In this document: one piece after another, positions 35,989 through 38,199 of the stretch | How positions within the stretch are numbered: the first letter of the stretch is position 1 | Layout: every line of letters starts with the position of its first letter | DNA from: Naegleria gruberi | Lineage: Eukaryota | NCBI GenBank assembly: GCA_000004985.1 | Contig: GG738866.1 | Direction: 5' to 3' (one strand) | Length of the DNA: 64,000 nucleotides | Translations under genes and position numbers: made by a program | The notes under the pieces: model-generated | Database searches by the model: none | The model's input: only the letters and a program-made list of their open reading frames with translations | Told to the model about the DNA's origin: nothing

Positions 35989-38199
35989 ATGAGTAAATTG
36001 ACAAGTGTCATGTTGCTTGTGGTGGTGATGTTCGCCATCTTAGCACATTTATGCGCAGCACAAAGTACTTTCAGCACTACAAATGAATGTAAATTCTGTA
36101 AAACTGCTGTTGAAATGGTGGTTAGCAAATATGGTAAGTAAAATAATTCATGATGTCATCATGAGTACTGACACACCATTTGACAGTCAAACCAGCATTT
36201 GCTAAAGCCTTTTGTAGACGTATGGGATTTAAATTCTGTACTAAACTTGAAACCTATCTTGAAGGAGCTAGATCAATTAAACATGCCAAAGATTTGAAGA
36301 GTAATTTGGCATTGACAATTTGTAAGGGTGCTTTAAAGATTTGTTCCAATAAGAACCAAAAGGAAACAACACAACAAGTTGATGAAGTGACATATGTTTT
36401 CCAAATTGTTGATGGTCCAAAGTTTTTCAATTTCACAGAACAATCTGATGCTTTCGACTCAATTAATGGAAATGCCACTTTATTTGGTTATTATTATAAT
36501 AGTTCTGCTCATTCAGTTTTTAATGGAACAATGAATACTACTGGAGATGTTTCATTCAATGGAACTCATAATGTTTTTGTTAATGGAAGTTATATTCATC
36601 AAAATGGATCATTGTTTATTGGAAACAATTTGACAGTTATTAATGGAAGTGTTTCACATAATGGATCTTTCCTCATCACAAATAATACCTATCACCATAA
36701 TGGTAGCACCTTTATGAATGGTAGTATTTCAAATGATTTTATGGGAATTAATGGAACTTTGAATTCTACTGGATATATCTATATTTCTAATTCAACTTTC
36801 TATTCTAATGGTTCAGTAACAAAGAATGGATCAATTTCATATGGAAATGGTACTTTTGAAGGAAATGGAACTCATTCACACTCTGGTGTTATCAGATATC
36901 ACAATGATACCATGTATCACAATGGTTCATTGAATCATAATGGTACAATGAATTATGGTAACGGTACATTCTTCTCCAATGGTTCATTAGCTCACAATGG
37001 TTCAATTCATTACAATAATGGTTCAATTTATCACAATGGTTCATTGAATCATAATGGTACAATGAATTATGGAAATGGTACATTCTTCTCCAATGGTTCA
37101 TTAGCTCATAATGGTTCAATTCATTACAATAATGGTTCTGTTTATCACAATGGTTCATTGAATCATAATGGTACCTTGTATTATGGTAATCAAACCTATT
37201 TCAATGGTTCTACATCTCAAAATGGAAGTGTTTGGTATCACAATGGATACCATTTCTCACAATGGTTCATTGAATCATAATGGTACAATGAATTATGGAA
37301 ACGGTACATTCTTCTCCAATGGTTCATTAGCTCACAATGGTTCAATTCATTACAATAATGGTTCAATTTATCATAATGGTTCATTGAATCATAATGGTAC
37401 AATGAATTATGGAAATGGTACATTCTTCTCCAATGGTTCATTAGCTCACAATGGTTCAATTCATTACAATAATGGTTCTGTTTATCACAATGGTTCATTG
37501 AATCATAATGGTACCTTGTATTATGGTAATCAAACTTATTTCAATGGTTCTACATCTCAAAATGGAAGTGTTTGGTACAACAATGGATCAATTTCTTACA
37601 ATGGTTCATTGAATCATAATGGTACTATTTATTATGGAAATGGATCATTGTCATCCAATGGTTCATTATCTCACAATGGTTCAATTTACTATAATAATGG
37701 AACTATTAACCATAACGGATCAATTGTTTACAACTCTAGTACTGGCTCTGATTCATCTCTTTGTTGGGGACAATCCGTTTGCATTCGTGGTGATTATACC
37801 TCTAGTGGTAAACTCAATTCCAGTTTATTCGATAATGCTGTTGGACTCACTGGTAACATGACTGTAAATGGTGATTTGATTATCAATAGATCTTTCAATG
37901 TTCAAGGTAACTTGTTCGTTAATGGTACCCTTAGATTGCACGGTTATTTGAATGTTGCTGCTGGCAGTTCATTCACTTTGTGGGGTAAGATTGTTGTGAA
38001 TGGAAAGATTGTCGTCAGTGGAAATCTCAGTATTACCAGTTTGAAATCCGGCAGATTTAACATTGATTCTTCCAATACTTTATCAGTCAATAACAGCAAT
38101 GTTTACTTTAAGGGAAAGAGTTTCAGCGTTTTCGTTAATAGAAATGGTGAAGGCACCTATTCTGTTAATAAGGAAGTTTCCACCCATGCAAGAGGATAA
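35989..38199 (+). CDS. Secreted protein with signal peptide, saposin-like 6-Cys domain, Asn-Gly-Ser/Thr repeat region (dense N-glycosylation sequons) and a beta-helix-like C-terminus. Exon 1 is 35989..36133, with a 53-nt intron. A +1 frameshift sits near 37240.
   Basis: Signal peptide MSKLTSVMLLVVVMFAILAHLCAAQ. Cys pattern C-x2-C-x20-C-x7-C-x27-C-x6-C (saposin/amoebapore-like), completed across the GTAAGT..GACAG intron. Dozens of HNGS(L/I)NHNGT repeats follow. The C-terminal (N/G)xxVxG repeats resemble a beta-helix. A single extra g (caatGgatacc, ~37237) shifts the frame; the ORFs 36180..37280 and 37168..38199 overlap. Confidence 0.55.
36890..37600. repeat. Tandem higher-order repeat: a ~339-bp unit (3 x ~113 bp) duplicated head-to-tail within the NGS-repeat gene.
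   Basis: aatggttcattgaatcataatggtacaatgaattatgg recurs at 36921, 37034, 37261 and 37375. The 36895-37235 block is nearly identical to 37236-37575. Confidence 0.8.

Follow-up and report, generated by a model that had tools for sequence, protein, structure and literature searches.

Gene content of the window

The window, a 64-kb stretch of the Sanger draft assembly of Naegleria gruberi NEG-M, has a GC content of about 33%, and its Pfam content includes RhoGEF, NGP1, VID27 and IQ domains. Exact look-up of the long ORFs found six of the seven in the protein collection, five of them as annotated N. gruberi proteins on a 469,335-bp scaffold; 27830-30244 corresponds to EFC44873 (XP_002677617) and 38486-40573 to EFC44875. 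The ORF at 25547-27808 is listed from an ENA contig and clusters with N. gruberi EFC44794. That protein (913 aa) is encoded at 24854-27808 (+), where two GTAAGT introns lie upstream of a 753-aa ORF; on the ENA contig, a gene call made in prokaryote style lists the 753-aa ORF alone.

The ENA metagenome contig (L001, positions 1-8281; ERZ929261, ERR1078381, k127_294696) matches window positions 25182-33469 at 99.4% identity. It differs from the scaffold by 17 substitutions and 6 indels, and none of these breaks the frame in coding sequence. Such a high identity suggests that a very close relative of NEG-M was present in the sample, whether environmental or other. The contig ends at window position 33469, 2.5 kb short of the repeat gene described below.

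Two smaller features of the window are recorded here. The ORF at 34894-35244 (-) has a short match to Fibrinogen_C (PF00147; E 3e-5, residues 2-28, motif VYCDMTTDGGGWTL), a domain mostly known from animals, and probably represents a single exon within a larger gene. The ORFs 54340-55206 and 55178-56008 (+) are joined by a canonical GTATGT...TTGTAG intron at 55199-55290. They form the only other overlapping same-strand ORF pair in the window and serve as an internal control for a genuine frame change.

A predicted two-exon repeat gene at 35989-38199

Judged by its reading frames, the region 35989-38199 (+) is one two-exon gene and not two ORFs' worth of genes. Exon 1 (35989-36133) holds the start codon, a predicted signal peptide (MSKLTSVMLLVVVMFAILAHLCAA, followed by Q; called by eye from the sequence and not by a predictor) and the first CxxC of a Cys-rich N-domain. 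It lies within the ORF 35989-36141, which is joined in frame to the main ORF by a 53-nt spliceosomal intron (GTAAGT...ACAG, 36134-36186). The donor hexamer of this intron is the same as that of the two introns in the neighbour EFC44794. Exon 2 begins with the remainder of the six-Cys helical N-terminal domain and a linker (36187-36440), modelled by AF2 as helices, followed by degenerate NG[ST] hexapeptide repeats (36441-36897) that were modelled as regular short strands (pLDDT 55-80) and that we read as the older coils of a beta-solenoid. Next come the two copies of a duplicated block, at 36898-37236 and 37237-37576, then a third, diverged repeat unit (A3) with the end of the NG[ST] array (37577-37722). 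The gene closes with a C-terminal, non-NGS, beta-helix-like domain and the stop codon (37723-38199, frame 1).

As deposited, this gene is not open throughout. Frame 0 has no stop codon from 36187 to 37277, while the other two frames have 16 and 41 stops upstream of the joint between the block copies. Between 37162 and 38196 it is frame 1 that lacks stops, while the other two frames have 34 and 14 downstream. The two frames are jointly open only over 37162-37280, and a TAA at 37278-37280 closes the frame-0 product. The earlier sequence-only reading had described the locus as an ORF at 36180-37280 and another, in the +1 frame, at 37168-38199, in agreement with the ORF list, which places them in frames 0 and 1. 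It was also right that the gene could specify products of two lengths. The figures that it gave, about 400 and about 730 aa, change once the upstream exon is counted: translation of the deposited sequence stops at 412 aa, and deletion of a single base at the joint yields one two-exon ORF of 718 aa, in which all 318 codons downstream of the deletion (frame 1) are intact, with no stop. We infer a native product of 718 aa.

The predicted protein

The 718-aa product consists of the signal peptide, a six-Cys segment of ~75 residues, ~440 residues of NG[ST]xxx hexapeptides and a C-terminal domain of 158 residues. The repaired protein is 16% Asn and contains 72 N-x-S/T sequons, which are predicted N-glycosylation sites. 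AF2 single-sequence modelling of 37246-38196 returned a regular solenoid with three short strands per ~19 residues; pLDDT was about 80 over the NG[ST] repeats and 65-70 over the C-terminal domain. For the N-terminal domain, AF2 gave four helices with pLDDT below 50. Taken together, the model and the sequence features predict a secreted beta-solenoid, rich in N-glycosylation sites, with a bactofilin-like beta-helical C-terminal domain.

The description of the C-terminus as beta-helix-like is plausible. Pfam Bactofilin (PF04519) matches residues 603-658 at 17.9 bits (E 0.0038), which is under the 27.9-bit gathering cut-off. Exhaustive HMMER searches with the C-terminal domain gave 62 weak matches, the best of them to metagenomic proteins with Bactofilin domains; these are multi-stretch matches that reach at best 5e-12 and 29% identity. 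The solenoid strands of the AF2 model are consistent with this assignment. Foldseek returned no significant match (none with E below 0.01), and its top matches were all beta-helix adhesins or antifreeze proteins. The N-terminal domain had no Pfam match and no sequence match in the PDB.

The repeat gene at 35989-38199 is unannotated, and the look-ups made suggest that the N. gruberi protein set lacks it. By exact look-up, the protein collection contained neither of the two ORF products nor the spliced product of 412 aa. Queries made of the N-terminal 160 aa and of the C-terminal 158 aa matched nothing in searches of protein collections, not even themselves in the N. gruberi proteome, and the repaired full protein had no homologue among the matches listed (8000 low-complexity candidates). 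Scans of JGI metagenomes with peptide patterns from the C-terminal domain and with a 29-nt exact string across the block end found nothing, and there is no paralogue within the window. The gene thus appears to have no detectable orthologue. That no protein collection searched contains a homologue tempers the view that the gene is functional.

A 339-bp block is duplicated head to tail

The sequence-only reading had reported a head-to-tail duplication in the array, and we find it at coordinates within 2 nt of those given. TRF detected a single large tandem array across the window, at 36897-37700, with a period of 340, 2.4 copies, 94% matches and a score of 1433; nested within it are periods of 57, 114 and 340 bp. 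Copy 1 (36898-37236, frame 0) is 339 bp or 113 codons long. This confirms the length first given for the block but not its division into three units of 113 bp, because the actual sub-units measure 114 (A1), 114 (B1) and 111 bp (C1). Spacing of the motif AATGGTTCATT across the array follows the same pattern (57, 57, 57, 57, 112, 57, 57, 57, 57, 111 and 57 nt). The long interval is 111 nt in copy 2 and 112 nt at the joint. Copy 2 (37237-37576) has 340 bp, shares 98% identity with copy 1 and is read in frame 1 past a surplus base. The third unit, A3, is 83-85% identical to A1 and A2.

When 36897-37236 is aligned with 37237-37577, the two differ by six substitutions and by the insertion of a single base at 37245 (CAATGATACC to CAATGGATACC). 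Two of the substitutions adjoin the surplus base (G to T at 37254 and A to C at 37256), and the remaining four are spread over the block, at 36959/37299, 37034/37374, 37109/37449 and 37196/37536. The alignment therefore bears out the earlier observation that caatgatacc has become caatGgatacc at the junction, with adjacent substitutions. Together with the stop counts, it also supports the claim that one surplus base pushes everything downstream of it, the remaining repeats as well as the C-terminal domain, into the +1 frame.

We considered whether the duplication itself might be an assembly artefact and rejected this, as there are four sites that distinguish the copies and the sequence that joins the end of the block to its start is unique and must derive from reads. 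In our model, the 339-bp block (113 codons, ~six coils) was tandemly duplicated in frame. Since the predicted solenoid repeats every ~19 residues, the duplicated block would add about six coils to it. Polymorphism of repeat number had been offered as one cause of the frameshift. A unit of 339 bp is in frame, so a change in repeat number alone would not shift the frame.

Two antisense ORFs run through the repeat array, at 36892-37158 and 37238-37498 (-). Their products of 88 and 86 aa begin MNHCDK..., and we regard these ORFs as by-products of the periodic sequence, not genes.

Splicing or recoding is unlikely to bypass the break

An otherwise open gene with a one-base break might still be expressed in full if an unconventional intron restored the frame or if ribosomes underwent programmed +1 frameshifting, UCA UAA U (37275-37281) being one candidate site. 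The shift needed is indeed +1, a Ser codon precedes the frame-0 stop, and the downstream frame is fully open. We searched for rescue introns of the GT..AG type with a GTAAGT/GTATGT-type donor, a length of 1 mod 3, a donor at or before 37280 and an acceptor at or after 37162. There are 61 frame-restoring GT..AG pairs, and none has a GTAAG or GTATG donor. Their donors are instead codon fragments such as GTTCAT, GTACAA and GTATCA. The four introns established in the window have the donors GTAAGT (three) and GTATGT (one). An intron that removes the joint in cDNA, the scenario that had been named as contradicting a true frameshift, is thus unlikely on the sequence evidence, as 0 of the 61 pairs has a donor of the local type.

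Recoding fares no better. Each repeat unit contains the would-be splice sites and the string TCATAATGG as part of its ordinary codons, and UCA UAA U at the frame-0 stop is what the AAT CAT AAT GGT of the repeats becomes in another frame. A shift at the stop would add 11 off-frame residues (GYHFSQWFIES) to a regular coil. The longest homopolymer in 37162-37280 is AAAA, so there is no slippery homopolymer that could serve transcriptional slippage, and frameshifting by -1 would enter frame 2, which has 14 stops downstream. The antizyme +1 programmed frameshift site is UCC UGA U. The end of frame 0 resembles antizyme-type sites in having a Ser codon, a stop and a U, and in the +1 shift that it would require. 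It differs from them in lacking conservation (no orthologue was found) and in that the string is ubiquitous repeat sequence out of frame. We therefore give hardly any credence to a bypass of the break in expression. The locus is very probably a single, otherwise intact gene with a one-base break that is either recent or artefactual, and that is mended by neither splicing nor recoding.

A break that postdates most of the divergence between copies

The four substitutions away from the joint (GGT/GGA, CAC/CAT, CAT/CAC and ACC/ACT) are all synonymous third-position changes when each copy is read in its own frame. Based on the codon content of the block, four of four synonymous changes have a probability of about 0.005 under neutrality. 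At the joint, two further substitutions give Met-Tyr in one copy and Ile-Ser in the other. Counting these as one or two non-synonymous events leaves a weaker case for purifying selection, with P rising to about 0.02-0.05 by a hand calculation from the computed synonymous fractions. Since the four non-joint substitutions are synonymous, both copies appear to have been translated after the duplication, until recently. In the proposed sequence of events, both copies would have been translated for most of the time since duplication, and the break would be younger than most of the 1.2% divergence between them. Some of the differences between the copies could be imports by gene conversion from units already filtered by selection.

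These observations also bear on when the frame was lost. If the duplication had comprised 340 bp, it would itself have been inactivating, placing the downstream copy out of frame at its origin and leaving the gene dead since. In formal terms the sequence does permit a period-340 register (36907-37246 and 37247-37586), whose breakpoints share AATG/AATGG microhomology. However, the divergence that followed is limited to four substitutions that are all synonymous, a pattern of low probability under neutrality as given above, and the downstream sequence has accumulated no secondary lesion. The period-340 register also leaves extra differences at the ends (TATCAC vs TACAAC). An in-frame duplication of 339 bp and a break younger than most of the divergence argue against a 340-bp duplication that killed the gene, and we consider such an origin very unlikely.

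Separately, a processed or long-standing pseudogene was considered and rejected, given a single lesion, no stop in 318 downstream codons and synonymous changes at all four of the non-joint substitutions.

The broken joint combines the states of the two other joints

We aligned the three joints of the array, namely upstream sequence to copy 1 (J1), copy 1 to copy 2 (J2) and copy 2 to the diverged third unit (J3). Two one-base indels (+1/-1), which compensate each other and lie three bases apart, distinguish J1 (AATG-ATACC) from J3 (AATGGAT-CAA); both of these joints are in frame. J2 (AATGGATACC) carries the longer state at both indels, for a net change of +1. It has no private state; each of its variable columns has the base of J1 or of J3.

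The identity of the surplus base within the lesion GGATA (37245-37249) consequently depends on the reference chosen. It is G37245/37246 when compared to the upstream joint (AATGATACC), and A37249 when compared to the downstream joint (AATGGATCAA). Deletion of G37245 gives NDTISH, which is J1-like, and deletion of A37249 gives NGSISH, which is J3-like and canonical; each restores the 718-aa frame. The surplus G converts an odd AATGAT to TATCACAATGG, the commonest unit start of the array.

Because J2 lacks a private base and is long at both indels, the +1 looks like a templated mixture of repeat copies and not like random noise. With A3 as outgroup, the ATT TCT of J2 may be ancestral. If so, the surplus base would be the sole novelty, and its agreement with the downstream joint could be a coincidence.

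A young allele or a consensus error

From the three-joint alignment we infer that the mixing took place either in the cell or in the consensus. The NEG-M genome is a Sanger assembly, and Naegleria is described as being, in the main, diploid and heterozygous (PMC9928731). Sequence alone cannot tell a young null allele from a consensus error of the assembly, and the two are about equally probable.

If the mixing happened in the cell, the mechanism could be gene conversion over a short tract, or the repair of a heteroduplex formed by misaligned repeats in which both looped-out bases were kept. This route would yield a young, possibly heterozygous, null allele. That NEG-M truly carries GGATACC at the joint, in all copies or in one haplotype, as the outcome of such an event is a possibility to which we give slightly less than an even chance. 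The mosaic at J2, with no private state and with both members of a compensated indel pair long, is what such a process could leave behind. The array of 680 bp should be spannable by single Sanger reads, so that both the copy number and the joint are probably well called. Over 8.3 kb, moreover, the assembly agrees with an independent Illumina contig from a close relative, with no frame-breaking coding difference. Surface protein genes with repeats are known to be prone to lesions of this type, which also favours a real allele. On the other hand, the four synonymous differences and the 318 intact downstream codons require that such an allele be very recent, and the mosaic demands at least four switches of parental state within some 20 nt, more than one conversion tract would usually produce. 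If the allele is real, it would encode a 412-aa truncated secreted protein that has lost the last ~300 residues.

Mixing in the Sanger consensus would instead have arisen where the reads piled together came from more than one repeat copy, or from two in-frame haplotypes, and both insertion columns were retained. The true joint or joints would then be in frame (AATGATACC... and/or AATGGATCC...), and only the deposited consensus would mix the columns. This too falls just short of an even chance. It is favoured by the combination of a Sanger draft with a genus described as heterozygous diploid (PMC9928731), and an alternating mosaic is the natural outcome of column-wise voting. In addition, the surplus G regularises the joint to the commonest 11-mer of the array, and the gene otherwise looks fully functional. 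However, misplaced reads from the downstream joint would bring CA in place of TC, along with many A3-specific bases, and none of these is in the consensus. Nor is there any other frameshift-like anomaly among the large ORFs of the window, or any frame-breaking discrepancy within the 8.3 kb that can be cross-checked.

The joint could also be a real, reversible switch, in which conversion over short tracts, frequent among nearly identical NG[ST] units, toggles AATG(G)AT(A)CC between the in-frame and the +1 state. If so, the free-living amoeba would vary the expression or length (412 vs 718 aa) of a secreted beta-solenoid protein with heavy N-glycosylation between cells or haplotypes. We know of no contingency-locus-like mechanism described in Heterolobosea, and we regard such a switch as highly improbable. 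Recoding by +1 at UCA UAA U would be a weaker variant of the same idea.

Whether it arose as a young allele or in the consensus, the lesion is of an ordinary type, and it would open a new biological question only if the joint were a true switch. The locus shows how a frameshift can result, whether in cells or in assemblers, when two in-frame repeat variants that differ by compensated indels are mixed. It is also a small, clean example of tandem coding repeats growing by an in-frame six-coil block. Pending a check of the one base, the model for this unannotated gene should be a 718-aa secreted beta-solenoid glycoprotein.

Comparison with known systems

The N-terminal domain is presumably reminiscent of SAPLIP domains, such as those of naegleriapores. 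It resembles saposin-like domains in its six Cys (CxxC ... Cx7C ... Cx6C) and in having four predicted helices after a signal peptide. It differs from them in that Pfam, searched up to E 1, returned no SapB match, the PDB gave no sequence match and the pLDDT is below 50. The likeness is therefore given as a lead only.

The Bactofilin fold, taken here as a right-handed beta-helix of ~18-residue triangular coils, is another parallel, for the remainder of the protein. Like Bactofilin-type beta-helices and beta-solenoids (tapirins, beta-helical antifreeze proteins and autotransporter passengers), the modelled repeats would form triangular, three-strand coils of ~19 residues each. Whereas Bactofilin is a bacterial cytoskeletal polymer, the protein considered here is eukaryotic, predicted to be secreted and rich in N-glycosylation sites.

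The fungal adhesins FLO, ALS and Awp are repeat-bearing surface or secreted proteins in which unequal recombination alters the repeat number. These adhesins differ from the Naegleria protein in several respects. The two groups share no sequence or domain homology, and no GPI or transmembrane tail is visible in the protein described here. Its glycosylation sites are N-linked sequons, in contrast to the Ser/Thr-rich O-glycosylated stalks of the adhesins, and its repeat array is known from one sequence alone, whereas repeat number in FLO, ALS and Awp is variable. In its organisation, however, the gene is like them: it has in-frame coding repeats, a very recent duplication of a multi-unit block, a product predicted to be secreted and a high density of glycosylation sites. 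Furthermore, as in repeat-protein genes of the FLO, ALS and Awp type, its lesion sits at a joint between repeats.
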